A stretch of 64,000 nucleotides of DNA from an uncultured bacterium (GCA_938027655.1 CALJAP010000021.1:15879-79878), one strand, 5' to 3'; counted from the first letter of the stretch, positions 4,419 through 62,800 are shown. Translations and numbers: made by a program. The notes: generated from the sequence alone by a model not told the origin.

Positions 4419-4730
4419 TTATTTCTCCAGAACTGCCAGCACGTCGTCCTGGCGCAGGATAACGTACTCTTCGCCGTTGATTTTGATTTCGGTACCACCG
4501 TACTTGGAGTAGAAGATAACGTCGCCCACTTTGACTTCCATCTCCACCACTTTGCCGTTGTCCAGCATCTTACCGGGACCGACGGCGACAACCTCGCCCT
4601 TCTGGGGTTTCTCTTTGGCAGTATCGGGCAGCACGATGCCTCCACTGGTTACCTCTTCGGCTTCCATCGGCTTGACGACAATGCGGTCTGCAAGCGGTTT
4701 GAGCTGTACCTTGACTGCAGTCTCAGGCAT
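4419..4730 (-). CDS. groS: Co-chaperonin GroES (Cpn10)
   Basis: 103-aa product ending ILAVLEK; lies immediately upstream of groEL in the operon. Confidence 0.95.
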
Positions 4731-4757
4731 CGCAGAGTCACCTCCTCAAGCAGAATT

Positions 4758-4784
4758 TTAGCACTCGACAATGCCGAGTGCTAA
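4758..4784 (-). promoter_or_regulatory. CIRCE operator (HrcA binding site)
   Basis: Perfect TTAGCACTC-N9-GAGTGCTAA inverted repeat between the promoter and groES. Confidence 0.9.
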
Positions 4785-4794
4785 TCCACGAATG

Positions 4795-4823
4795 ATAATA
4801 CCTCAAGTTTGATAAGAATGCAA
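4795..4823 (-). promoter_or_regulatory. Sigma70-type promoter of groESL (TTGCAT-17-TATTAT)
   Basis: On the minus strand, -35 TTGCAT is at 4818-4823 and -10 TATTAT at 4795-4800, with a 17-nt spacer. It lies 10 nt upstream of CIRCE. Confidence 0.6.
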
Positions 4824-4906
4824 GGGTTTAGATGGGTCGTTCGGTTTCGCAGGCTCGTATCTCGAATCGGTTTGCAATCGCTTCGTTCCCATGCTTTAGT
4901 GTTCTG

Positions 4907-6016
4907 CTATTTCTCCAGCCATGGGGCAAGGAAGCGGCTGTGTACTGCTACGCGCTCCCCCGTTTCTGCCGATTTCTGCGCAGCAAGCATGACCTCCAGC
5001 ACATGAAAGGCGTGCTCGGCAGTCATCAAAGGCTTTTCACCGGTGGCAAGGCATCGCGCCAGATACGAACCTCCCTGATTCCAGTTATAGCCCTTCTGGT
5101 CTTCGCAGACCACCTTCCACGCGCCCGCCTCGGTATCCCACACCTCCACGCCTTTGGGGTGCCAGTCCCATCCCAGCATATTGATACTCCCTTTTGTGCC
5201 AACCAGTTCGATAGTGCGCTCCTCATGGTAGGGACCGTATACGAAGCCCGTCATCACACACGAGAAAACGCTGTTACCATGGTCCATCAGCACGATAGTG
5301 TTATCGTCGGCTTCCACCTTGACATGCTGTCCTTCCACAAATCGTTCTTTGATGGCGGTTCCCATCAGCGCGGTAACGCTTTCGGCAGGGCCGAGTAGCC
5401 CGGTGAGTGTGGTGATATTATAAACGCCCAGGTCAAACAGGCATCCCCCGCCCTTCCGGTAAAACCAGGGTCCCCAGCCGGGTCCGCCGTGCCCGTACCA
5501 CGCTCGGGCGACGTATACGTCACCTACCGCCTTCGCCGCCAGCAGTTTCGCCATGCACTGGAACGCCGGACTGGTGACCACCGTCGGCGCGCCCCAGAGG
5601 TAAACGCCGTGTTGTCGGGCGGTTTCTATCAGCGTGCGCCCTTCCTCCAGTGTGGTGGCAAACGGCTTTTCACACAACACGTGTTTGCCTGCCTGTAGTG
5701 CCTGCAGATTAATCGGATAGTGCTGTTGCATGGAGGTCAGGTTAATGAGCATGTCGAACTCACATTGGCTGAGCAGGTGCTCCACGTCGGTGTACACCTG
5801 TGGTACACCGAACTGCTCCGCGCGTTCGCGAGCACGGGCTTCCTTGACATCACACACAGCAACCACCCGTGCGTGTTTGCTGGTTTTCAGGTCATTCAAG
5901 TAATGCCAACTCACGCTGCCGCATCCTGCGATGGCGATGCGGATCACAGACATGTGTACCCTCCTGACATGGTTCGCCTGCGGTGCGACCCGCGGTCGTA
6001 CCCTTAGATTCGCCAT
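4907..6016 (-). CDS. Gfo/Idh/MocA-family NAD(P)-dependent oxidoreductase
   Basis: Rossmann N-terminus IRIAIAGCGSVSWHYL followed by the C-terminal alpha/beta domain typical of this family. Confidence 0.7.
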   Translation of the reverse strand: MANLRVRPRVAPQANHVRRVHMSVIRIAIAGCGSVSWHYLNDLKTSKHARVVAVCDVKEARARERAEQFGVPQVYTDVEHLLSQCEFDMLINLTSMQQHYPINLQALQAGKHVLCEKPFATTLEEGRTLIETARQHGVYLWGAPTVVTSPAFQCMAKLLAAKAVGDVYVARAWYGHGGPGWGPWFYRKGGGCLFDLGVYNITTLTGLLGPAESVTALMGTAIKERFVEGQHVKVEADDNTIVLMDHGNSVFSCVMTGFVYGPYHEERTIELVGTKGSINMLGWDWHPKGVEVWDTEAGAWKVVCEDQKGYNWNQGGSYLARCLATGEKPLMTAEHAFHVLEVMLAAQKSAETGERVAVHSRFLAPWLEK

Positions 6017-6115
6017 GCATGTGCCCCCGCCCTCTTGCCAGATAGTGGGTTTTTGTGTTAATCTGTATCACCGCAGGTGACATCAGCCGGAACGGGCAGG
6101 CGAGGAGCGTCAGCG

Positions 6116-7051
6116 GTGGCATTCGTCGAAACACACAACCTGACCAAAAAGTACGGTAATCTGGTAGCGGTGAATAATCTGAATCTGCGCCTGGACGAAG
6201 GGGACATTCTCGGCTTTATTGGACCCAACGGTGCAGGCAAGACCACGACCATCCGGATACTTGCCACCCTGCTGGAACCGACGAGCGGTACCGCTACCAT
6301 CGCAGGGCACGACGTGGTGAAGGAGCCGGAAGCGGTGCGACGGATTATCGGCTACATGCCCGACTTTTTCGGCGTGTACGATGATGTGAAGGTGTGGGAG
6401 TATCTGGACTTTTTCGCGTGCGCCTACCGCGTGCCTCGCTCGGAGCGGGCAAAGCTGATCGATGATGTGCTCGCGTTAACCGACCTGTCGCATAAGAAAG
6501 ACGACTACGTGGAAGCGCTCTCGCGCGGAATGAAGCAGAGGCTATGCCTTGCCAAAACCCTGCTGCACAACCCGCAGGTGCTGTTGCTGGACGAACCGGC
6601 ATCGGGCTTGGACCCACGCGCCCGCATCGAGATAAAAGAACTGTTGAAAGAACTGCGGAACATGGGCAAGACCATCCTTATCTCCTCGCACATTCTGCCC
6701 GAACTGGCGGATATCTGCAACAAGATTGCCATCATCGAGCGCGGAGAACTGCTCATCAGCGGCGAGATCGATACCATCATGCGCCAGCTGACCGGCTCGC
6801 ATGTGCTGGAGATCAAGGTTGCCGACGATGAGGAAGCCGCCGTGCAGGTGCTGCAGAACCAGCTGGAGGACATCCGTGAGGTGCGGGTGGAGGATGGGGT
6901 TATTCGGGCGCACTATGTCGGTCCCCCAGGCGAACACTACCGCGTGGTGTGGGCACTGGCTGAAAAACGGGTAAAGGTGCTCTCCTTTGCCGAGCAGCCT
7001 ACCGACCTCGAAGACATCTTTATGCGCGTCACACAGGGAGTGGTGCAGTAG
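6116..7051 (+). CDS. ABC transporter ATP-binding protein (ABC-2 type)
   Basis: Walker A GPNGAGKTT, LSRGMKQRL signature and Walker B LLLDEP. The start is probably GTG at 6116, with GAGGAG 7 nt upstream. The ORF track extends the frame to 6077. Confidence 0.85.
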   Translation: MAFVETHNLTKKYGNLVAVNNLNLRLDEGDILGFIGPNGAGKTTTIRILATLLEPTSGTATIAGHDVVKEPEAVRRIIGYMPDFFGVYDDVKVWEYLDFFACAYRVPRSERAKLIDDVLALTDLSHKKDDYVEALSRGMKQRLCLAKTLLHNPQVLLLDEPASGLDPRARIEIKELLKELRNMGKTILISSHILPELADICNKIAIIERGELLISGEIDTIMRQLTGSHVLEIKVADDEEAAVQVLQNQLEDIREVRVEDGVIRAHYVGPPGEHYRVVWALAEKRVKVLSFAEQPTDLEDIFMRVTQGVVQ

Positions 7052-8469
7052 TGATAGAACGACTGGAGAACCCCGTTTTTCGACAATCCTCGCGTCAAAG
7101 GATGCGCGGCGCGCGGACGTATGGCTGTCTGTTGGCTTACCTGCTGGTGCTGGGGCTAGTGGTTATTATCTCATACGACCAGTTTGTAGCGCATGGAGTA
7201 CAGCGCACCACCACCGGTTTGGCGCAGATGCTGTTCGGTACGCTCGCGATGACCCAGTGGTTTCTGGTGGCTTTTATAACGCCGGCTCTCACCACCAGCG
7301 CGATCACGATGGAGCGCGAGCAGCGCACGTACGACCTGTTGATGATGACACCCCTTTCCCGTTTTACCATCGTGTGGGGCAAGTTCGCTTCCGCGCTGGC
7401 GTTCACGGTGGTGATGATTGTGTGTGGGATGCCACTGGTAGCGGTGCTGTTCCTGATGGGCGGCGTAGACGTTGGCTTAATGCTCACCCTGTACCTCGGT
7501 ATGCTCGCTACCGGAGCGGTGCTGGCAGCGTACGGTCTGATGATGAGTACAATATGTGCAACCTCCACCCTAGCAAACCTGCTCACTTACGGCAGTCTGG
7601 CAGTCGGGTACTTTGGGGCTGCTGTTACTGGGACGGCTTATACGCTCAGTCGGGCGTTCGGGGGCGGTTCTTTCAACATGTTGTGGCTGGGCGCCGGTTT
7701 GACCTCCTGGCAGATGTGGACTTTCGTGGTGTTAACCCTGCTTCTTACTGTTTGGCTGTTGTTGCAGATAGCCAGCAACTATCTGCTTGCCGACCCCCGT
7801 GCGGGAGCGTGGAAGACTCGATCGCTGTTGATTGCGTTGTATCTGCTTATTCTCGTTGCTACCCTCCTCGACGCACAAGCGACAACTCGCACCTCCGCCT
7901 CAGCCAATTATCTGGGTGGACTGTTCGCGTTCTTGTGGGCATTGGTGATTCCTGCGTTGTTCACGGGGGTTCCTTACGGCAGCAAGAAGTGGTATGAGTG
8001 GCTGTACCCAAGTAGTCTACGGGTGGGCGCGATACAGAGCGCGTTGCCCTTCATGTGTCTCATCGTGCTCACGGCGATTGTGGCAGACCGTTTCATGCCC
8101 GCACCGTTGCGCACACAGCCGCTCGTCTGGGCATATGTCATGGGCTACTTCTGCTGGATTTGGTCACTGGGCTACCTGTTGTCGTTTGCCATCCGAAACC
8201 GGTGGGGCGCGCTGTTCGCACTGGTCGGTGTTCTGGCGGTGCTTGTGCAGCTCATCTCCACGGTCAGCATAGTGGACGCCAACAGAGGCGGGCAGCAGCG
8301 GTTTGAATTGCTGCTAAACGTGGCGTTGCCGATTGCTCCATGGGAAGCCAGCGGTAAGATGGACTATCGGATATGGGTGGTGTTGTATCCGCTGATGGCT
8401 ACGGCGAGCCTACTGCTGACCGGTTGGCTTCGCAGATTCCGGAAGAGCGCGGTGACGGAAGGCTCATGA
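7051..8469 (+). CDS. ABC-2 family transporter permease
   Basis: 472-aa multi-pass membrane protein. Its GTG start overlaps the ATPase stop (TAGTG). Confidence 0.7.
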   Translation: MIERLENPVFRQSSRQRMRGARTYGCLLAYLLVLGLVVIISYDQFVAHGVQRTTTGLAQMLFGTLAMTQWFLVAFITPALTTSAITMEREQRTYDLLMMTPLSRFTIVWGKFASALAFTVVMIVCGMPLVAVLFLMGGVDVGLMLTLYLGMLATGAVLAAYGLMMSTICATSTLANLLTYGSLAVGYFGAAVTGTAYTLSRAFGGGSFNMLWLGAGLTSWQMWTFVVLTLLLTVWLLLQIASNYLLADPRAGAWKTRSLLIALYLLILVATLLDAQATTRTSASANYLGGLFAFLWALVIPALFTGVPYGSKKWYEWLYPSSLRVGAIQSALPFMCLIVLTAIVADRFMPAPLRTQPLVWAYVMGYFCWIWSLGYLLSFAIRNRWGALFALVGVLAVLVQLISTVSIVDANRGGQQRFELLLNVALPIAPWEASGKMDYRIWVVLYPLMATASLLLTGWLRRFRKSAVTEGS

Positions 8470-38134: not shown

Positions 38135-38534
38135 CGTCGGTTCCTCCTGTCGTCCGGTTACTATCTGTTTTCCGCAGCAGATGGGCAGCTACCTGCCTTA
38201 TGTGAGACTGCTTGACGTTGAAGCGTGGAGAGCGTATCGTAAGGAAGGAGAATACTTAGGAGATGCCGGAAAGCACGCTGGAAAGAAAGTTGCAGGCTGA
38301 ATGCAGCGGTTCACTGCATGTGTACCGAGGGCACGAGATGGGCGAAGGAGCTGCTGCGCGAGCACGCCGTACGGATGGACTGGAGCTACTTGCGCCAGCG
38401 GGCACGGGTTGGCGAAGGCATGTCCAGCGCCAGCGAAAACGTGTATCTTCATTTTCGTGAATGCGGGGCAGGAGAACGGGGTGCAGGAGCAGGAATCCTT
38501 ACAAAGCTCCAATACGAGGGAAGGGTCTATTGGT

Positions 38535-39131
38535 ATGGCAGCTTTCTGGCGCCGGTGGCTAGGGCGCAAGCAGGTTGTCCTCTCTTTGGGCAAAGGTGCG
38601 GAGATCCGCCAGCTGACCCTGCAAGATGCTCCGGCGTTGTTCGACCTGACCGTGCGCAACCGCGAACGCTTGCGTCGCTGGATGAGCTGGGTGGATTTCG
38701 TGCGCAGTGAGGAGGATACGCGGGGCTTTATTCGCGAGTCGTTACGCAAATTTCGTTCAGCACGCAGCCTGCAGATGGGGATATGGTGGAACGGTAGCCT
38801 GGTAGGTACGGTTGGGCTGTTTCGCACTGCCAGCGCGGAGCAGGAGGCGGAAATCGGCTACTGGATCGATGAGGCGGCAGAAGGACAGGGGTTGGTAACC
38901 CGCGCCACACGAGAACTGGTTCGTTACGCCTTTGAGCAGTGGCAGGTGCCGGCGGTGCGCATTCGTGTGGAGCCCGAAAACGTCCGCAGTCGCGCTATCC
39001 CTGAGCGGTTGGGCTTTCGCCTGCGCGGGGAGGTAACAGAGGACTGGGCGGACGGCAGCCAACGCACTTTGCTGATATATGTGATGCGTGTCTCCGAGTT
39101 TCATGATCAGCACACAGAAGAACACGGGTGA
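38535..39131 (+). CDS. GNAT-family N-acetyltransferase (RimJ/RimL-like)
   Basis: GTVGLFRTASAEQEAEIGYWIDEAAEGQGLVTRATRELVRYAFE. The start is probably ATG at 38535 (RBS GAGGGAAGGG). The track ORF begins upstream at 38301. Confidence 0.75.
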   Translation: MAAFWRRWLGRKQVVLSLGKGAEIRQLTLQDAPALFDLTVRNRERLRRWMSWVDFVRSEEDTRGFIRESLRKFRSARSLQMGIWWNGSLVGTVGLFRTASAEQEAEIGYWIDEAAEGQGLVTRATRELVRYAFEQWQVPAVRIRVEPENVRSRAIPERLGFRLRGEVTEDWADGSQRTLLIYVMRVSEFHDQHTEEHG

Positions 39132-39160
39132 GACGGATTGATGCGGATTGCCCAACCGTC

Positions 39161-39456
39161 TTCATCCGTATGCTATTTCCCGGAAGGACACGGATTGACA
39201 CAGATGAGACGAATTGGCACAGATACTATCCGTGTTCATCCGTTGCATCGGTGTTTATCCGTGTGCTATTTCCCGGAAGGACACGGATTGACACAGATGA
39301 GACGGACCGGCACAGATACTGTCCGTGTTCATTCGTTGCATCGGTGTTTATCCGTGTGCTATTTCCCGCAAGGACACGGATTGACACAGATGAGACGGAG
39401 CGGCACAGATACTATCCGTGTTCATCCGTTGCATCGGTGTTTATCCGTGTGCTATC
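39161..39456 (+). repeat. 93-bp tandem direct repeat, about 3.2 copies, each unit a strong hairpin
   Basis: Unit TTATCCGTGTGCTATTTCCCGGAAGGACACGGATTGACACAGATGAGACGGACCGGCACAGATACTGTCCGTGTTCATTCGTTGCATCGGTGT contains the stem ATCCGTGT/ACACGGAT. Copies are 90-95 % identical. Confidence 0.85.
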
Positions 39457-39475
39457 AAGCCGTGAGGAGGTTCTC

Positions 39476-39856
39476 ATGCTACACAAACAGTTGACCAACA
39501 AAATCATCGCTGCATTCTACAAGGTGTACAACACACTGGGGTACGGCTTTCTGGAAAAAGTGTATGAGAACGCGCTCGCCCACGAGCTGCGTCAGCAAGG
39601 TTTGGATATACGTCAACAGATGCCTATCAAAGTGTATTATGACGGTCAGGTGGTAGGAGAGTATGTCGCTGATTTATGCGTAGAGGGATGCGTGATCGTG
39701 GAGATTAAAGCGGCAGAGTCGTTATGTCCTGAGCACGAAGCACAGCTGCTCAACTATCTGAGAGCCACCGAGATAGAAGTTGGATTGCTGTGCAATTTTG
39801 GTCCGCAACCTGTATTCGCTCGAAAAATACTCACCAACGACAGAAAAGAAACCTAA
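39476..39856 (+). CDS. GxxExxY protein (PD-(D/E)XK-like small protein, TIGR04256-type)
   Basis: GYGFLEKVYENAL matches the GxxExxY motif. The product is 126 aa with a strong RBS GGAGG. Local GC is below that of its surroundings. Confidence 0.7.
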   Translation: MLHKQLTNKIIAAFYKVYNTLGYGFLEKVYENALAHELRQQGLDIRQQMPIKVYYDGQVVGEYVADLCVEGCVIVEIKAAESLCPEHEAQLLNYLRATEIEVGLLCNFGPQPVFARKILTNDRKET

Positions 39857-49242: not shown

Positions 49243-51570
49243 CTAATCAGGTGGTGTTGCCCGCGTCGGTATCTGTAGCGGACGCCCCACGCTATCGGTG
49301 AAGCGTACCGTCAGATTCCAGAGGTTGCCGTGATTGACGACCTTGACCACCAGCAGGTGCCACCCTGCACCATTTCCGGGCACCGACACGCGGTCTTGGT
49401 CGGGCTGGAAGCCGCGAGGCACATCTGCTACCAGAATCGGCTTGCCGTCCAGCCACACCGCCGCGCCGTCGTTGCTGCCCAGCCGCAGGCTGATGACTGG
49501 GAGACCGGGCAGCTGTACCCAGCAGGCAGCGTACGCGCTCACCCAAGGGTCACTGCACAACAGGCTGCGCAGATCGAGTAAGCCGAAGGGGTGATTGACG
49601 CTTACTTGCCGCCAGCCCGCTTCCCCTGACAATGTGGAGAACTTCTGGGAAAGGTTAACTGCATCTACCGGAATGTCCGCGTTGCTCAGCTCGCCCGGGT
49701 TGCAGCGGAACGGTCCTATCACCTGCCACTCGGTGATGAAGCCCAGCTTGTGGGCGAACGCCGCGCCTTCCTTTTGCGCCTCGCGCCACGCCTGTCCGCG
49801 CGCCTCGGTGGTAGTGTAGCCTGCGCTTGTCAGCAGTTCCACGTATGCCTGCGCCTCGCTACCGCGCTCTTGCGACTCGTGCCGTGCCAGCCACATATCG
49901 ATGATGTCATGCTGACCGCTGTTTTGCAGCTCCTGCACCATCTGCGCGAACTGCAGGTCCGCCTCCCAGGCGCGCATGATGTCGCCAGCGCGTCGGGCGG
50001 TTGCCGCCTGCCACTGGAGGGTGTAAACGCGGTGCCCGATTTGCAGCTTGCGTACCCGCTGTTTCACCGCCTCCGAACGCGCTTTGCTGAACGCCTCCTC
50101 CAGCAACTGGCGCCCCTGTTCCATTGCTTCCGAGGAGGGATACACCCACCAGTCCTCGTGGTTCTTCGCCTTCAGGGGCATACTCGCCATCAGGTTCTCA
50201 TACAGGGTGAAGTATCGGTACACCGGCTCGGCGGATTCGGCGAACAGATGCTGGCAAAACTCACGGATTAGCGCGTCGGTATCGGTTTGCGGATTCCACA
50301 CCAGCTTCACCGCCGCGAAGATATTCAGGGGCTGCGTCCACCAGTCATCATGTGTCTCACTGTTCAGGTGCTCGATGCCCACCTTCGCATAGAAGGGGAT
50401 GTCTACCTTCAGCGTATGCACCAGCGGCCATTGCCCGAACCACTGCCAGTGCCCGTAGTAGTCGTAGATGCCCACATGGGGACACAGCTCGCGCCAGCGC
50501 AGTACCGCTTGACGAAACCGTCTGCACGGGGCGCAGTCAGCGGTGATGGGATGGGCGTGACAGAACTCCCACGGCGTGTGACATATCACCGGCATCAGAT
50601 TGGGGTGAGGCTTTACCTTCAGGGGTGGGTCGGTGTGCGTGAGGTAGGCGTAAAAGCAGAGTATCTTATCCGGGTAGCGCTTCGCTACCTCTTCCGCAAT
50701 CTGGTTGAAAAACACCAGCAGGCGGTCGGTGAACTGTCCTCCGGGCGCGAAGGGGTCTACACCCAGCTCTCGGTCCAATGCACGGCAACGTTCGCACTGG
50801 CAAAACTTGCCGGAGTCGTTGGGTGACAGAGAGAAGGTTTTCGCCTGCGGGTTTTTCTCAAAGTAGTCCAGCACCCTCTGGATAGCGAGACGGATGACCT
50901 CGGGATGGGTGGTACACAGCTGCCACTTCCGTTGCCCGTCGATGAGCGCGAACCATTCGGGATGTCGGTCCACCTCCTTCAGGGAGATAATGCCTTCCCA
51001 GTTGTGGCTGTGCCAGTAGGGTTGAAACCCTGCCAGGCGGTTGCGCCGTCTCCACTCTGCGCCTCTAGGCGGGTCTGCCTGATAGCCGCCGAAGCCGGTG
51101 ACGCTAGGGATGGCAGGCTCGCGCGTTTCATCCAGCGCAGGTATCGTGACGGTTTTCTGCCGGGGTACATACTCGCCCAAATCGCCCGGGATGTACCAGC
51201 GTACACCCAGATGGTCCTCCAGTAAACCGTAAATGCCGTTGACCACGCCCGCTTCGGTCGCCCCCTCAATGAAGAGGCGGTTGCCCTCTGTGCGCAGGCG
51301 GTACCCCACATCCGACAATCCCCGCATGCCGGCACGCAGCACGATAGCGGCACGGTTCGCAGGCGGTTCCGAGACCACAGGCAGACGCGCCCCGGACATC
51401 TTCTCGATGTAAACCTGCAGGTCGTTTACCGCTGCAGAGAGGTCGCCGCGAGCTTCGGGGGGTGCCACGATTACCGCTTGTGGATTGCCGTTGCGCACCA
51501 GGGTAACCCGCGCAGCCGCGTTCACGGGAGCCATAGCGAGCAACAAACCGATGAAGCAACAAGCGATCAC
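49243..51570 (-). CDS. Secreted DUF4838-like putative glycoside hydrolase
   Basis: Signal peptide MIACCFIGLLLAMAPVNAAA. The N-terminal region resembles DUF4838/GH-like proteins. 775 aa. Confidence 0.4.
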   Translation of the reverse strand: MIACCFIGLLLAMAPVNAAARVTLVRNGNPQAVIVAPPEARGDLSAAVNDLQVYIEKMSGARLPVVSEPPANRAAIVLRAGMRGLSDVGYRLRTEGNRLFIEGATEAGVVNGIYGLLEDHLGVRWYIPGDLGEYVPRQKTVTIPALDETREPAIPSVTGFGGYQADPPRGAEWRRRNRLAGFQPYWHSHNWEGIISLKEVDRHPEWFALIDGQRKWQLCTTHPEVIRLAIQRVLDYFEKNPQAKTFSLSPNDSGKFCQCERCRALDRELGVDPFAPGGQFTDRLLVFFNQIAEEVAKRYPDKILCFYAYLTHTDPPLKVKPHPNLMPVICHTPWEFCHAHPITADCAPCRRFRQAVLRWRELCPHVGIYDYYGHWQWFGQWPLVHTLKVDIPFYAKVGIEHLNSETHDDWWTQPLNIFAAVKLVWNPQTDTDALIREFCQHLFAESAEPVYRYFTLYENLMASMPLKAKNHEDWWVYPSSEAMEQGRQLLEEAFSKARSEAVKQRVRKLQIGHRVYTLQWQAATARRAGDIMRAWEADLQFAQMVQELQNSGQHDIIDMWLARHESQERGSEAQAYVELLTSAGYTTTEARGQAWREAQKEGAAFAHKLGFITEWQVIGPFRCNPGELSNADIPVDAVNLSQKFSTLSGEAGWRQVSVNHPFGLLDLRSLLCSDPWVSAYAACWVQLPGLPVISLRLGSNDGAAVWLDGKPILVADVPRGFQPDQDRVSVPGNGAGWHLLVVKVVNHGNLWNLTVRFTDSVGRPLQIPTRATPPD

Positions 51571-51640
51571 GATGATAACCTCCGATTGCGTTTCAGTTAG
51601 AGGTTCTCACTGCGCAGGCGTTTTCCTGCAGAGTATAATG

Positions 51641-52798
51641 TTATTCAGGCCCCGCAGGAATTGCCTGCCCCTGTGCGCTATCCCAACCATGCAGGTTGCC
51701 GTCCAGCGCGCACAGCACGTTCGAATGCTGTGCCTCCAGTTTTGCTTCCTCGGTGATGTCGTGTCCACCCACTGCTGCCATGCAGGGATAGCCCGCCTTG
51801 CGCATCAGCTCGGCACGACGACGCGCCCGGGCAACATCGCTTACATCGACCACCATCGAAACTTCCATCACCAGATAAATATCCCTGTCCGGTGCGTCTA
51901 GTGGGCGTCCGCGCGCGATGATGTCCGCCGAGAAGATGTCCACTATTTCATCGCCAGCGAGCGCTTGCCTGACCTGCTCCTCGATGTCCGGCGGTGACAA
52001 CAGCCGTACGCGGCGCATTACCTTGCCCAAGTAGGCGTGGATGTGCTTGGCGTAGTGCATCTCCAGACGCCAGCCGCGCAGGTCGTCGATGTGCACATCG
52101 CGCACCTTCTGCCATTCCACCAGCCTGTCTATCTTCTCTGCCAGTAGCGCTATCTGCATATCGATGCGGTCTAGCCTGCTGTTAGTTGCCTCACGATAGG
52201 AGGAGAACTCCTCCACCACACGGTTGTGGCTTTCGGTCAACGCCTGTAATGCCGCCTCAATGCGTGCGAAACGCTCCTCTGATGCCTGGCGATACGCGGC
52301 AAACTCCTGTGCCAGATGCTCCAGCGCCGCCTCAATGCGTGCGAAACGCTCCTCCGATGCCTGGCGATAGGCAGCGAACTCCTGAGCCTGACGCTCCAGC
52401 GCCGCCTCGATTCGTGCGAAACGCTCCTCCGACATCTGGCGGTAAGACACGAACTCCTGAGCCTGACGCTCCAGCGCCGCCTCAATGCGTGCGAAACGCT
52501 CCTCCGATGCCTGACGATACGCGGCAAACTCCTGTGCCAGATGCTCCAGCGCCGCCTCAATGCGTGCGAAACGCTCTTCCGACATCTGGCGGTAAGACAC
52601 AAATTCCTGTGCCTGACGCTCCAGAAGGGACTCGATCCGCGCGAATCGCTCGGCGGATTGCTCGGCTAATCGCTCCACCTTTGCAGGCAGGGCGAGGAAC
52701 TCGTCCGGCGCGAGGGCGACAAACACCTTTCGGCGCAGCTCCGCATTGCTACGCAGAAGCTCTATCAGTTCTTCTACATCGGGAGTGTCGATAGGCAT
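51641..52798 (-). CDS. Coiled-coil protein built from 25-aa (75-bp) tandem repeats, with a C-terminal domain possibly of restriction-endonuclease-like fold
   Basis: EERFARIEAAL(E/H)(R/L)(Q/A)AQEF(V/A)(S/A)YRQ(M/A)S repeated about 5.5 times at near identity. The C-terminal 150 aa contain D...DIYLVMEVS...D in a PD-(D/E)XK-like arrangement. Confidence 0.5.
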   Translation of the reverse strand: MPIDTPDVEELIELLRSNAELRRKVFVALAPDEFLALPAKVERLAEQSAERFARIESLLERQAQEFVSYRQMSEERFARIEAALEHLAQEFAAYRQASEERFARIEAALERQAQEFVSYRQMSEERFARIEAALERQAQEFAAYRQASEERFARIEAALEHLAQEFAAYRQASEERFARIEAALQALTESHNRVVEEFSSYREATNSRLDRIDMQIALLAEKIDRLVEWQKVRDVHIDDLRGWRLEMHYAKHIHAYLGKVMRRVRLLSPPDIEEQVRQALAGDEIVDIFSADIIARGRPLDAPDRDIYLVMEVSMVVDVSDVARARRRAELMRKAGYPCMAAVGGHDITEEAKLEAQHSNVLCALDGNLHGWDSAQGQAIPAGPE

Positions 52799-52858
52799 TG
52801 TGTCACTCCTGTTGGTATTGCCATCCGTATTTTACCACATCGCGGGAGAATCAGCCTC

Positions 52859-53476
52859 TTACCTGCCCGCTATCGCTGCCTGCCAGGGTTCGCGGTGCGC
52901 GGCTTCGTACGCGGCAATCTTGTCCTCGTGCTGGAGGGTCAAGCCGATGTCGTCCAGCCCTTCCAGCAGGCACTTCTTGCGGAAGGGGTCTATCTCAAAC
53001 CGGCAGGTGAAGCCGTCGCTGCCTGTCAGTGTTTGCGCCTCCAGGTCTACCTCTATCTGGTAGCCTTGCTGTGCGGTCACCCGGCGAAACAGGTCGTCCA
53101 CCACCTCCGCCGGCAGTTCCACAGGCAGGATGCCGTTCTTGAAGCAGTTGCTTTTGAAGATGTCGGCGAAGGAAGGGGCGATAATCACCCGAAAGCCGTA
53201 GTCCAGCAGCGCCCAGGGCGCGTGCTCGCGGCTGGAGCCGCAGCCGAAGTTCTCGCGGGTGAGCAAAATCTGCGCCCCCTGATAGCGCGACTGATTCAGC
53301 ACGAAATCCGGATTGGGCGAGCCATCTGGCAGAAACCGCCAGTCGTAAAAGAGGAACTGTCCAAAGCCGGTGCGCTCCACCCGTTTCAGGAACTGCTTGG
53401 GCACAATCTGGTCAGTGTCCACGTTCGGCTGGTCCAGCGGAGCCACCAGCGCGTTTATTTTCTCAAAAGGTTTCAT
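52859..53476 (-). CDS. leuD: 3-isopropylmalate dehydratase small subunit
   Basis: [33 protein letters not shown]... Confidence 0.92.
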
Positions 53477-59600: not shown

Positions 59601-60485
59601 GGCTTCGGCGACAGGGTACGCTTGCGATGGCATACCGGCATCGTCGGGGCGCATCATGCCAACCTGCTGGAGGAACCCCTGCAAGCCCTTTCTCTGCAGG
59701 ACGGAGCGGTAGAGTTCCCGCTGGATAGCTTCGCCATCGAAACCTTCCTGCTGAAGCCGAAACCTTTTACCCCGAAGGGCGGACGCCGTGTGCTGGGCGC
59801 AACGACCGAACCCGTGCAGCCGGTGTACGTGCGCTACTGGCAACACAATCTCGGCGCCGACCCCATCGGCTACCTGCCGGTGGCGGTGAGCCTGCGCGGA
59901 GAGGTGAAGACGGGTATCCACATCCGCCAGGGAGGCGTGACGGTCAACACGATCGAGGTGGGCGTCGTGAATAACCTACGCGACCGCAACGCGACGGGCG
60001 TCGTTCGCCTAATCGTCCCGGAAGGCTGGCACACTGTGCCTGCGGAGATTCCGTTTGACCTGCCTCCGGGCGAGGCACACTGCTGGAAGGTGCTGCTCTG
60101 CTTCGACACACCGCGGCGGACGGGTGTGGTGCGCGCCCGGCTGGAGTGGGATGGGCAAACTTATGAGGATATTCTGGAGGTCGGACGCGAGTACTTCCCC
60201 GAATGGGATGTACATCTCGTTCGGAATGCGCTGCTCGTGCGCCTGCGCAACGGCACAGACGACCTCATCCATGGCGCGGTGCAGGTGATTACGCCACTGG
60301 AGACATGGGGCGACGCCGCGGGACTATACCGCCTGACCGCTGGCGGCAAGCACACGCAGGGTTTCGGTCTGCAACCCGACGAGCGTGCGGAGATACGCTT
60401 CGAGGGGGAGCCACCGCCCGGGCGAGGCTTCATCATCGTAAAGGTGATGGCGCATGGCAAGGTAGAGTACCGCAAGGTACAATAA
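56670..60485 (+). CDS. GH38-family alpha-mannosidase
   Basis: VVPGFHSDVVWLEDQ and ...GGSHSQPTETVIGGEGIVRNILYGRWY... match the GH38 N-terminal catalytic domain. 1271 aa. Confidence 0.7.
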   Translation: MAQRTCTYVVPGFHSDVVWLEDQRDYAVSLLGDMHQNLQILRIDPRYGVFLHELTYLKPYLDTHPEALPEVRRWVQEGRIGTGGSHSQPTETVIGGEGIVRNILYGRWYHEGVLGDQPWIYMPWDVFGHTAQLGQILRKSRFRGCIWSKDIRGALAVFWHLALDGEPLLFKRMGYWLPSGDPETFLKAIDDFFQEMRSLGFTADCRLDCVDFKPPTAWMAGRCEELAGREHAVIISGIGHEQWFEHAFRQHEERTVSIPVTSRDYEWHHQGTGLSRIELKIGNRLAEQNLHQAEFFATVAHLLGAEYPDKALDKAWRQLLFNQHHDGIAGPSCDRAYLDMMAGFREALELAHDVRSRSLRYICDQTDTAYTAPPPTVIALQVHNALGWSRTDAVHVTLRFPKPVSGFRIEDSEGNAVPCQLESPVPPRLPLHEAEVTLLARDIPAMGFRTYRVVETDSLPPAPRLIPGYAIENEFFRVTADPQLGGGLSSLFDKQAGREVLNPQAGPGNEIVALLEKADRAEPAWECYTLGPKWFSRDYAANVQAWQGPVQSRLVIRGEMRSCEREQVVSLTQGVRRIDFATQLQRYRGENELFVVTFPVNVQNAEPVFEERFGAITKRKSKGKLDFRFHQWRNFSECGARHACQWVDLSGAAWVRFADGQQRPFGMCHLVTSHHPASVQAAYTLQRALIRKGVPCTPVYDDFDAPRRLQLPVEDTILPFPNNPNEDLSLGMSFRVVFSLNGDNTYLSDLMAHLPETQATRLQALLSEQQGIALVDDPDMPDGWQPLPVLVIAAKDEATLQQMVQQLSEQIEQSAAIVLPAEANLLQRPIPADSYGVALVNTGNVLNSVENDNTMVLFLMHTAAWGGTPWGKPDRLPFVFIPEHKTHLFRYSLYPHRGDWREAQTARVGWEVNNPLQTVQGMLHGGALPLDYSFLQVEAKGAILTALKPADNPTGRFESGAVDAERGSIVVRLYDPTGFGDRVRLRWHTGIVGAHHANLLEEPLQALSLQDGAVEFPLDSFAIETFLLKPKPFTPKGGRRVLGATTEPVQPVYVRYWQHNLGADPIGYLPVAVSLRGEVKTGIHIRQGGVTVNTIEVGVVNNLRDRNATGVVRLIVPEGWHTVPAEIPFDLPPGEAHCWKVLLCFDTPRRTGVVRARLEWDGQTYEDILEVGREYFPEWDVHLVRNALLVRLRNGTDDLIHGAVQVITPLETWGDAAGLYRLTAGGKHTQGFGLQPDERAEIRFEGEPPPGRGFIIVKVMAHGKVEYRKVQ

Positions 60486-60505
60486 AGGCCGGAGGTGGGC
60501 GAAGC

Positions 60506-61162
60506 ATGCAACCCGCGCTGAAAACCGACAAGATGACCATGACCTATGAGGAGTTCCGTCAGTGGGCAGGGGAAGATACCTGTGCCGAGTGGGTGGATGG
60601 GGAGGTCATTTTACCGAGGCCACCAAAGAGAAAACATCAGTCTATCACTATATTCCTGACCCGATTGCTGAGTGATTTTCTGGAACTCACCGGGCAGGGA
60701 GAAGCGATTGCCGCTCCTTTTGAGACCTTTTTACCCTCTCGCCCAGCATCGCGCGAGCCGGATATAATCGTGGTGCTCAGTGAGAATCTGCAAAAGTTGA
60801 GCGAGGAACGCTTCACCGGTGCCCCTGACCTTGTGGTGGAGGTGGTTTCGGAGGATAGCGTGCGCCGTGACCGGATGGAGAAGTTTCTGGAATACGAGCG
60901 CGAGGGCGTGCGCGAGTACTGGCTGGTCGATTCGCGCCCGGCGCATCTGGGGGTAGATGTCTTCACGCTGGAGCAAGGCAGTTTCGTGCCTCTCGTGCCG
61001 AGTGAAGAAGGCTGGCTGGAGAGCAAGGTGCTGCCCGGCTTCCGGGTGAAGGAGACGTGGTTTACCGGGCAATCGCTTCCTGACGTGTACAGCGCGTTGA
61101 GCGAGATGCTGTCTCCCGATTTAAAGCAGAAGCTGGCGCAGAAGCTGGGCATCCCCCTGTAG
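60506..61162 (+). CDS. Uma2-family (DUF820) putative endonuclease
   Basis: MTYEEFRQW...AEWVDGEV...PDIIVV...APDLVVEVVSE...REYWLVD. The ATG at 60506 has RBS GGAGGTG. The track ORF extends upstream to 60203. Confidence 0.8.
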   Translation: MQPALKTDKMTMTYEEFRQWAGEDTCAEWVDGEVILPRPPKRKHQSITIFLTRLLSDFLELTGQGEAIAAPFETFLPSRPASREPDIIVVLSENLQKLSEERFTGAPDLVVEVVSEDSVRRDRMEKFLEYEREGVREYWLVDSRPAHLGVDVFTLEQGSFVPLVPSEEGWLESKVLPGFRVKETWFTGQSLPDVYSALSEMLSPDLKQKLAQKLGIPL

Positions 61163-61397
61163 GGGCAACCCTATGTGGTTGCCCCTACCCTATGTGGTTG
61201 CCCCTACCCTGTGTGGTTGCCCCTGCCCTGTGTAGTTGCCCCTGCGCTATGCGGTTGACCCTACCCTATGCGGTTGCCCCTGCGCTATGTGGTTGCCCCT
61301 GCCCTGTGTGGTTGCCCTGCCCTATGTGGTTGCCTCTGCCCTATGTGGTTGCCCTGCCCTATGCGGTTGCCCCTGCCCTATGTGGTTGCCCCTGCCC
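61163..61397. repeat. Tandem array of a 19-bp unit CTATGTGGTTGCCCCTGCC, 12 copies with point variants (two units are 18 bp)
   Basis: Head-to-tail copies with no spacers. The period is not a multiple of three. The array begins with the hairpin GGGGCAACC-ctatgt-GGTTGCCCC. It fills the entire gap between the convergent stops at 61162 and 61405. Confidence 0.9.
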
Positions 61398-61404
61398 GCG
61401 CAAT

Positions 61405-62550
61405 CTATCCTATCGCTTCCAGCTCTTTCTGCAGCACCTCGGTATAGGTTGGGTCGTCTTCGTCAATCTTCTCCAGCACCGCCTTCAGCAGGTTGATGTA
61501 GCTGATGTCGGTGGGGTTCACGCCGTAGAGCAGCGCGAGGTAGCAGCTCACCCAATCGCCGAAGTAGATGGCATAGAGCATTCGCGCCAGCAGGCTCTGC
61601 CCCTCGGCAAACACTTCGTGCACCTGCGCTGCGCGGGCAAACAGTCGTTTCGTCGTCTCCACACGCGCCACGATTTTCGGTCGCTCCGCATGGTCGCGCA
61701 ACAGCACTACTGCCAGATTGGGAACCTGTTGCTTCGCCAGCACCCACCCCAGGATTTCGTTGTGGTTCATCTCGGGGTAGCCATTGGAGAAAGCGTGAAT
61801 CTTGGTGTTCTCGTTCAACTGCGTCTTCCAGCGAAAGGCGACGACGGTGGAATACGCCTGCGAGCCGTAGATGAGGGGCAGCTTGCCGTACAGCCCCGCA
61901 GCAAGCTGCTTGGCAGGGTTCTTCTCGAACGGCACATCGGCGTTCCACTGCTCTCGTGCCCGCTCCAGCAAGGCGATAGCGTTCTGCAGGTCACCGGTGG
62001 GATCACGTCGGAGGACACCCGCCTTATGCGCCGCCATCAGCATAGGGATAAACAGGTAGCCCATCGCGCTGCGAGGGGGCTGTCCCTTAGGGATAAACGC
62101 GACAGGGGTGCCGTAGTGCGCCGCGCGTTGAGCCAGCTCGCCACCGCTGGTTACGCACGCCAGAAGCGCGCCCCGGTCCTGTGCGTCCTCGAACGCGCTC
62201 AGCGTTTCCTCGGTGTTGCCGGAATAGCTGGCAGCGATCACGAAGGTATGGTCGTTCACGAAAGCGGGCATCTGGTAGTCACGGTTCACCACCAGAGGCA
62301 CTTCGCCGTTGTCTTCTACCAGCACGCGCAGCAGGTCGCCCCCTACCGCCGAGCCGCCCAGCCCCGTCACCACAACATTCTGGATAGGCATGCGCGGTGT
62401 AGGAGGATTGAACTGCTTCGCGATGTCCAGTGCTTTGCGACATTGTTCGGGGAAGTCATGGGTCAGGGGAATCATATTCTGAGCATCCAGCACGGAACGA
62501 CGCGCCGCATCGTCCAGCACGCTGGTGTCTACCGCAACCTGATCGGACAT
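61405..62550 (-). CDS. Bifunctional phosphoglucose/phosphomannose isomerase (SIS-domain PGI/PMI family)
   Basis: SYSGNTEETL, tandem SIS domains and the C-terminal PGI/PMI signature. Start at 62550 has RBS GAAGGAGGAG. Confidence 0.75.
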   Translation of the reverse strand: MSDQVAVDTSVLDDAARRSVLDAQNMIPLTHDFPEQCRKALDIAKQFNPPTPRMPIQNVVVTGLGGSAVGGDLLRVLVEDNGEVPLVVNRDYQMPAFVNDHTFVIAASYSGNTEETLSAFEDAQDRGALLACVTSGGELAQRAAHYGTPVAFIPKGQPPRSAMGYLFIPMLMAAHKAGVLRRDPTGDLQNAIALLERAREQWNADVPFEKNPAKQLAAGLYGKLPLIYGSQAYSTVVAFRWKTQLNENTKIHAFSNGYPEMNHNEILGWVLAKQQVPNLAVVLLRDHAERPKIVARVETTKRLFARAAQVHEVFAEGQSLLARMLYAIYFGDWVSCYLALLYGVNPTDISYINLLKAVLEKIDEDDPTYTEVLQKELEAIG

Positions 62551-62569
62551 TACCTCAGCTCCTCCTTCA

Positions 62570-62800
62570 TCACTCCGCCACAAAGGGCAGTAGAGCCAGA
62601 TGGCGCGCCCGCTTAATCGCCTTAGCCAGCTGTCGCTGGTGCTTGGCGCAGTTACCACTGGTACGTCGTGCGACAATCTTGCCCCGATCCGTGATGTATC
62701 GGCGCAAGCGAGCCACGTTCTTGTAGTCGATATAGGCGACTTTATCCACGCAGAAGCCGCACACCTTGCGGCGTCGCCGGTAGCGCGGTTTGTTGGTCAT
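62570..62800 (-). CDS. rpsR: 30S ribosomal protein S18
   Basis: [55 protein letters not shown]. Confidence 0.95.

Follow-up and report, generated by a model that had tools for sequence, protein, structure and literature searches.

A Predicted PD-(D/E)XK-Fold Domain on a Repeat-Built Helical Stalk of Variable Length, Encoded Beside leuCD in an Uncultured Bacterium

Introduction

What purpose would be served by a nuclease-like domain at the end of a long helix built of tandem repeats? This question is raised by a minus-strand gene in a 64,000-nucleotide stretch of DNA from an uncultured bacterium (GCA_938027655.1, CALJAP010000021.1:15879-79878), which was analysed as a whole and is called the window below. 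The gene encodes a protein of 385 amino acids with three parts: a small helical head, an alpha-helical stalk containing 25-residue repeats, and a C-terminal domain predicted to adopt the PD-(D/E)XK, or restriction-endonuclease-like, fold (Table 1). The stalk varies in length among relatives, and the catalytic lysine of the fold is replaced by serine. We consider it fairly probable that this protein is a cytoplasmic, stalked nuclease which works as a standalone homo-oligomer and most resembles the DUF1626/PDDEXK_10 coiled-coil endonucleases.

The C-Terminal Domain and Its Active-Site Pattern

The C-terminal part (aa 222-385) was modelled by AlphaFold from an alignment of 12 relatives. The model has a predicted local distance difference test score (pLDDT) of 89.5 and a predicted template modelling score (pTM) of 0.81. 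Its topology consists of a long helix, a strand, two short helices, two strands, a helix, a strand and an extension. Among the best fold matches are the restriction and CRISPR-ancillary nucleases AspBHI, MspJI, Can2, NucC and HamA. A first-pass annotation of the window had proposed that the last ~150 residues resemble a PD-(D/E)XK core. This is borne out by the confident fold prediction, by the nuclease-fold matches and by an invariant acidic triad; the motifs DIFSADII and DIYLVMEVS that it had pointed out are both present in this part.

The acidic metal ligands of the PD-(D/E)XK superfamily, a Glu on helix alpha1, an Asp on strand beta2 and an Asp or Glu on strand beta3, are found here as E246, D292 and E312. 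Together with S314, D321, R324, R328 and G336, they are invariant in the ortholog alignment (A1), and these positions are kept in 158-161 of 162 diverse relatives. The lysine of the (D/E)-x-K motif is missing, a point that had been overlooked in the first-pass annotation: its site is occupied by Ser314, and by serine in 159 of the 162 relatives. An hhalign comparison with a coiled-coil family that carries an E-(V/A)-K motif, represented by P0014, yielded a probability of 90% and an E-value of 1.5e-6 over 68 columns, and S314 falls on the lysine of that family. The metal-binding acids are therefore strictly kept, and the lysine is replaced family-wide.

The P0014-type proteins form a second, smaller and only remotely related family of the same plan in Chloroflexi, with the canonical E-(V/A)-K (P0014, P0015, P0016, P0018 and P0278-P0293; positions 6001-7233 in both L006 and L007). 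In L007, another DUF16-like coiled-coil gene (4727-5644) lies directly upstream of the P0014-type gene.

Replacement of the lysine has precedents. Its migration to another structural element is documented in solved, active PD-(D/E)XK structures (PMC3424549). For the DUF1626 coiled-coil proteins, a change of the motif-III Lys to Thr has been described, together with a basic patch on the motif-IV helix (PMC1913061). By analogy with this patch, D321, R324 and R328, which would lie on one face of the helix after strand beta3, are candidates for substituting the missing lysine.

Head and Stalk

A full-length AlphaFold model (pLDDT 79) gives the same division into head, long stalk helix and nuclease-like C-terminal domain. 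The head (aa 5-35) is made of three short helices (aa 5-17, 19-29 and 32-35) leading into the stalk. The stalk is essentially one helix from residue 37 to 251, which continues straight into the nuclease-like domain as its first core helix. In aa 37-250, the strongest hydrophobic period is 3.56 residues, or 25/7, with a power of 133 compared with 34 ± 14 for shuffled sequences. The long helix and this period agree with the coiled coil that had been suggested for the repeats. The period fits a coiled coil in which each unit would consist of two heptads and one hendecad (7+7+11), with seven hydrophobic core positions per 25 residues.

In the head, D7 and L37 are invariant in the A1 alignment, and conservation reaches at least 90% at L15, P19, L21, R22, L35, A36 and P38. 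A hidden Markov model (HMM) of the head motif matches 125 of the 277 collected family members; the N-terminus of other members differs from it. At least two head types occur in the family, MAFTVxDYxDLVRLL... and ...LIDREALQAELQEVFD... No hydrophobic segment was seen when the first 48 residues were read. A secreted or surface-located coiled-coil protein was also considered, and it was rejected because signal peptide and hydrophobic segment are both absent and the protein ends in a domain of nuclease fold.

The Repeat Array and Its Change among Relatives

Counted on the protein, five complete units of 25 residues make up aa 49-173 and are followed by 11 residues of a sixth (aa 174-184), as expected from the earlier estimate of about 5.5 copies. 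The consensus of the unit is EERFARIEAALERQAQEF(V/A)(S/A)YRQ(M/A)S. Tandem Repeats Finder places a 75-bp period at 52251-52624 (5.0 copies, 84% matches, score 520) and also reports a 150-bp period (2.5 copies, 87% matches). The copies had been called nearly identical at the DNA level. This is true for units 2 and 5, which differ at only three positions, all synonymous, but not for the array as a whole, in which two units share 52-72 of 75 nucleotides. Two unit types (RQ..VS..M and HL..AA..A) and one hybrid unit make up the array. To judge from these types and identities, it is a mosaic that arose through duplication and through recombination within the array, and not a series of uniformly near-identical copies.

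The number of repeats is not fixed, in line with the length variation that had been anticipated. Orthologs are 234-385 aa long and contain one to six RFARIE-type motifs. These are spaced by 25 residues, occasionally by 18 or 32, that is by 25 minus or plus a heptad. Since the spacings differ by whole heptads, the length changes would keep the coiled-coil register. The related loci L016 and L009 show 98.8% identity across leuC/leuD and the 5' part of the gene, and their C-terminal domains are identical, with a synonymous divergence (dS) of 0; they differ by exactly 150 bp, which corresponds to two repeat units. In L016, the units of the array are 97% identical to each other. Three units fewer are counted in L017, which at ~88-91% DNA identity is the window gene's nearest relative.

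Similar arrays are found throughout the family. Adjacent stalk units are at least 70% identical in 71 of 148 family representatives and at least 90% identical in 49 of them, and no such adjacent units occurred in shuffled stalks or in C-terminal domains, which served as controls. A distant member from the Anaerolineae has a 63-bp array of 2.7 copies with 98% identity. The units of the individual members (P0019-P0166) are mostly 14, 21, 28 or 35 residues long, often with an "AEAQRRTEERL"-like motif; in the orthologs from Armatimonadota, they have 25, 18 and 32 residues (7n+4), equivalent to one hendecad per unit. Stalk length thus changes fast, by gain and loss of repeats. In the P0014-type family, near-identical alleles are 326, 347, 389 and 410 aa long, and the steps between them are whole units of 21 residues (TEAQARTEERVTRLEEAIARL).

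The Coding Sequence and Its Genomic Context

The open reading frame (ORF) was found as described earlier, with its ATG start, and it codes for a real protein. Its GC content at the first, second and third codon positions is 0.72/0.40/0.69, and that of the neighbouring genes is 0.63-0.65/0.38-0.47/0.71-0.79. Compared with four orthologs, the sense frame is under purifying selection, with ratios of nonsynonymous to synonymous substitution rates (dN/dS) that range from 0.04 to 0.13 for the C-terminal domain and from 0.09 to 0.12 for the head. An ORF on the opposite strand of the repeats, which the first-pass annotation had already dismissed, shows 0.74/0.67/0.41. This is the inverse of the coding pattern of this genome, and the ORF is therefore an artefact. 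The closest homologs of the 385-aa protein are P0001-P0013 and P0019. An exact look-up of the protein returned no record of an identical product or allele, and a second copy of the gene is absent from the window. A scan of 51300-53100 for promoter and terminator consensus sequences gave no match.

The gene is flanked by leuD (52859-53476) and by a gene of the DUF4838 type (49243-51570), all on the minus strand. The order leuC-leuD-gene-DUF4838 is found in the window and in L001-L004, L009 and L012, and parts of it in L016 (leuD-gene) and L013 (gene-DUF4838). The Armatimonadota relatives with this position include the Chthonomonadia metagenome-assembled genome (MAG) Ch118, the MAGs SKYG83 and RSWS16, and several metagenome contigs. 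Wherever the contig is long enough, gene order is kept despite protein identities of 40-92% and a leuCD DNA identity of ~80-83%; for P0008, the upstream neighbour differs from the leuC-leuD arrangement. No relatives were found on viral contigs, scanned with alignment A2, or in PHROGs. The fixed position in Armatimonadota, the solitary occurrence of distant members and the lack of relatives on viral contigs indicate a chromosomal gene passed on by vertical inheritance, and not one that is mobile or belongs to a defence island.

The conserved downstream neighbour in Armatimonadota encodes, in the window, a protein of 775 aa whose N-terminus resembles a hydrophobic signal sequence. Its orthologs in related loci are labelled DUF4838, and some have faint Glyco_hydro_20b matches. 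Next to the distant member P0017, a Uma2-family (PF05685) PD-(D/E)XK gene is located on the opposite strand (L008, 4946-5803), which is probably a coincidence.

Table 1. Positions of the stalked-protein gene, its parts and its conserved residues in the window
Feature	Position	Strand	Basis
Coding sequence, 385 aa, stalked PD-(D/E)XK-fold protein	51641..52798	-	ATG start; homologs, dN/dS, codon-position GC
Shine-Dalgarno-like AGGAG, 7 nt 5' of the ATG	52806..52810	-	Read off the sequence
Conserved N-terminal head motif, aa 1-48	52655..52798	-	A1 alignment, head HMM, full-length model
Alpha-helical stalk, presumed coiled coil, aa 37-251, continuous with helix alpha1 of the C-terminal domain	52046..52690	-	AlphaFold, hydrophobic periodicity
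Tandem coding repeats, five full 75-bp (25-aa) units and one 33-bp partial unit	52247..52654	-	Tandem Repeats Finder and unit-by-unit identity matrix
C-terminal PD-(D/E)XK (restriction-endonuclease-like) fold domain (predicted), aa ~240-380	51659..52081	-	
E246, motif-I glutamate on helix alpha1	52061..52063	-	Invariant in A1; 159/162 members
D292, motif-II aspartate, start of core strand beta2	51923..51925	-	Invariant in A1; 160/162; strand from model
E312-V313-S314, motif III on strand beta3, Ser at the canonical Lys site	51857..51865	-	E 161/162; S 159/162
D321-V-A-R324-A-R-R-R328, motif IV, start of the helix after beta3	51815..51838	-	D 161/162; R324 and R328 160/162 each
Antisense ORF, 202 aa, TTG start, Pro/Ala-rich, not a gene	52186..52794	+	ORF list; GC by codon position

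Family Distribution and Database Searches

A profile of the C-terminal domain retrieved 2,931 cluster representatives (50% identity) at E<=1e-3, 1,631 at E<=1e-10 and 239 at E<=1e-30. Among the 150 matches listed, the domain is nearly always located at or near the C-terminus, after 0 to ~280 variable residues. The family is spread over Chloroflexota, Acidobacteriota, Armatimonadota, Actinomycetota and other phyla, and named sources are Anaerolineae, Acidobacteria, Abditibacteriales, Tectomicrobia, Acidimicrobiales and a Nitrososphaera MAG. Its signature is GxxLExxY ... D-L-x-x-R-G ... E-V-S-x3-D-x2-D-V-x-R-A-x-R-R-A ... G. Nearly all members are annotated as hypothetical proteins; one UniRef entry (P0254) is called DUF3782 domain-containing. 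In a metagenome scan, no relatives were confirmed with the full protein, and only distant ones were found with the domain alignment.

When the full protein, both its ends and several relatives were scanned against Pfam, NCBIfam, PADLOC and PHROGs, all matches were to coiled coils such as DUF16, SMC, ZorA and JetC and stayed below threshold; they are treated as compositional noise. The PADLOC defence models produced only low-scoring ZorA, JetC and LmuB coiled-coil matches over the stalk. The isolated C-terminal domain did not match the DUF3782, PDDEXK_10, NucS or RmuC models, even at permissive E-values, and none of 13 members scanned has a Pfam model covering this domain. The suggestion of a DUF3782-like domain in the first-pass annotation found no support, as PF12644 (DUF3782) matched neither the full protein, nor its N-terminal 73 aa, nor P0254. 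PF07788 had no match in the C-terminal domain at E<=10 and none in 13 relatives, and neither Pfam label is found on any of 120 listed relatives. A search for PF07788-labelled members by way of the P0014-type family also found none; the link leads only to this unnamed E-x-K family. Sequence and profile searches of the PDB gave no meaningful match, and no member of solved structure was detectable by sequence. A de novo TIM barrel and the phage protein gp119, both with weak E-values, were judged spurious.

Comparison with Known Systems

The nearest described kind is DUF1626/PDDEXK_10 (PF07788, COG5493), whose function is uncharacterised and whose stalks correspond to the Pfam family DUF3782 (PF12644). 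Both have an N-terminal coiled coil followed by a C-terminal nuclease-like domain, a small hydroxyl residue that often takes the place of the motif-III Lys (Thr in DUF1626, Ser in the family studied here), and a conserved basic patch on the helix after motif III. Chloroflexi-type bacterial hosts are also shared with DUF1626/DUF3782 proteins (PMC1913061, PMC4786415, PMC3424549). Unlike DUF1626, the protein and 13 of its relatives match neither PF07788 nor PF12644, and the family has its own residue signature and its own N-terminal head motif. Because the Pfam models do not match, the gene is not filed under DUF1626/PDDEXK_10, and the common plan is taken as a resemblance and not as membership. 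We rather regard the family as a large sister group that lacks curation and is set apart by its active-site signature and head motif; the architecture as such has been known in outline since 2007.

The nearest solved fold is the C-terminal domain of NucS/EndoMS, the archaeal and actinobacterial mismatch endonuclease, with a sequence identity of 10-17%. NucS has an N-terminal beta-barrel domain for DNA binding and dimerisation, in contrast to the helical head and stalk found here, and it keeps the catalytic lysine. Membership in NucS was rejected, given the all-helical N-terminus, the absent lysine and the lack of a Pfam match; only the C-terminal fold is common to both.

RmuC, a DNA recombination protein, is attached to the membrane by an N-terminal anchor. 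In RmuC (PF02646), too, a long N-terminal coiled coil precedes a PD-(D/E)XK-type nuclease domain, and the gene likewise stands alone on the chromosome (PMC3424549). Motifs and taxonomic range are different, and membership was rejected, as the RmuC model of Pfam does not match and the first 48 residues contain no hydrophobic stretch.

Extensive coiled coils combined with nuclease domains are also known from the CoCoNuT (coiled-coil nuclease tandem) Type IV restriction systems (PMC11090510). Those are multi-gene, McrBC-type systems with a GTPase, unlike the single gene between leuD and the DUF4838 gene. Membership was rejected since McrB and McrC neighbours are missing at the locus. In HsdS of the Type I restriction enzymes, short in-frame tandem repeats of a coiled-coil spacer alter the geometry and thereby the specificity, as in EcoR124I versus EcoR124II. 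No sequence or fold relationship to HsdS is apparent, and an effect of stalk length on specificity would be conjectural for the family studied here.

Proposed Mechanism and Alternative Explanations

The three parts of the protein suggest how it might work, with an oligomeric state, catalysis, substrate and role that we infer as follows. A helical head of ~45 residues is followed by a continuous helix of ~215 residues, with the 25-residue repeats in its centre, whose end forms the first core helix of the PD-(D/E)XK domain. The stalk is predicted to form a parallel homo-oligomeric coiled coil that joins at least two catalytic domains. Such a juxtaposition is proposed because enzymes of this fold that cut duplex DNA need two or more of them. 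In each domain, the acidic triad E246/D292/E312 would bind Mg2+ or Mn2+, and an arginine from the following helix may provide the positive charge usually given by lysine. The substrate would be a nucleic acid, most likely DNA. By slippage or unequal recombination, the stalk would grow and shrink in 75-bp steps, each corresponding to ~3.7 nm of helix. As these steps would keep the register, the stalk might act as an adjustable spacer between the head and the catalytic domain.

Several observations weigh against this reading. The canonical catalytic lysine is absent throughout the family. The monomer model folds back at aa 120-126, at low confidence, so that two helices result (37-119 and 127-251), although such a break is what the prediction of a coiled coil as a monomer would typically give. 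No recurring partner gene points to a pathway, and distant members stand alone among housekeeping genes. The repeat counts come from short-read metagenome assemblies, which are prone to collapse or expand tandem arrays. Relatives of the window gene are ~80-91% identical at the DNA level, and strain-level variation was seen in a sister lineage, not in this organism.

The missing lysine makes a catalytically dead restriction-endonuclease-like fold the main rival. The protein would then bind nucleic acid or protein and serve as a structural tether or scaffold, to which we give a modest chance. Inactivated domains normally lose their acidic metal ligands, but here E246, D292, E312, D321, R324 and R328 are each kept in at least 159 of 162 diverse members, and active PD-(D/E)XK enzymes with a migrated lysine are known, as is the Thr substitution in DUF1626 (PMC3424549, PMC1913061). 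Rather unlikely, in our view, is a standalone conflict or defence nuclease, restriction- or abortive-infection-like, in which repeat slippage diversifies the reach or target range and the stalk evolves in an arms race. It would explain the near-identical, recently amplified stalk repeats across the family and the occurrence of several paralogs in single MAGs (P0194 and P0195 in D6723; P0212 and P0230 in RML36), and it is in keeping with best fold matches such as AspBHI, MspJI, Can2, NucC and HamA. However, PADLOC yielded coiled-coil noise and no specific model match, the neighbours are leuCD, DUF4838 and housekeeping genes in a position that is stable across genera, relatives were found neither on viral contigs nor in PHROGs, and strong purifying selection acts on both the head and the nuclease domain.

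One might go further and regard these proteins as "ruler" nucleases, a new class made of a single polypeptide. The head would recognise a nucleic-acid or protein target, the PD-(D/E)XK domain would cut at a distance fixed by the stalk, and slippage in register-preserving steps would retune this distance within populations, possibly in defence. This idea is improbable on present evidence. If true, it would mean a heritable, rapidly evolvable specificity parameter, comparable to the HsdS spacer repeats but contained in one standalone protein. An artefact, with the ORF spurious or its tandem array wrongly assembled, is hardly credible. Long ORFs on both strands are expected in GC-rich DNA, arrays exceeding the read length assemble poorly, and the exact 385-aa product has no other record. 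Yet the gene has syntenic orthologs across several independent assemblies, the dN/dS values and codon-position GC profile of a coding sequence, and a fold predicted with high confidence, and the units in the window are divergent enough (69-96% identity) for assembly. A stalked, homo-oligomeric nuclease thus remains the reading that we prefer.

Other Tandem Arrays in the Window

Two further tandem arrays are present in the window, and no Rfam match was obtained anywhere in its 64 kb. At 39164-39455, a 93-bp unit is repeated 3.1 times with 94% matches and contains an internal inverted repeat (ATCCGTGT...ACACGGAT). This array overlaps the start of a plus-strand ORF (39128-39856) and lies just behind another one (38301-39131, +). 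At 61169-61397, a 19-bp unit (CCCTATGTGGTTGCCCCTG), the period of which is not a multiple of three, is repeated 12.2 times with 88% matches. It starts directly behind the stop codon of ORF 60203-61162 (+), shares ~200 nt with the beginning of ORF 61192-62616 (+) and lies just before the 3' end of a minus-strand ORF (61405-62676). Its first copy and the preceding sequence form a GGGGCAAC/GTTGCCCC hairpin.

Significance

The family comprises at least about 2,900 clusters at 50% identity for which Pfam, NCBIfam, PADLOC and PHROGs have no model. It unites a confidently predicted nuclease fold, a strictly conserved E-D-E-x-S and arginine-helix variant of the active site, and a stalk whose length varies between near-identical strains. 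If active, these proteins would add a further documented replacement of the lysine in PD-(D/E)XK catalysis, and they would offer a natural system in which a nucleic-acid enzyme is tuned by the length of its coiled coil. If inactive, they would represent a widespread structural use of the PD-(D/E)XK fold. Whichever holds, thousands of "hypothetical proteins" would gain an annotation from a curated family model and a single biochemical characterisation.
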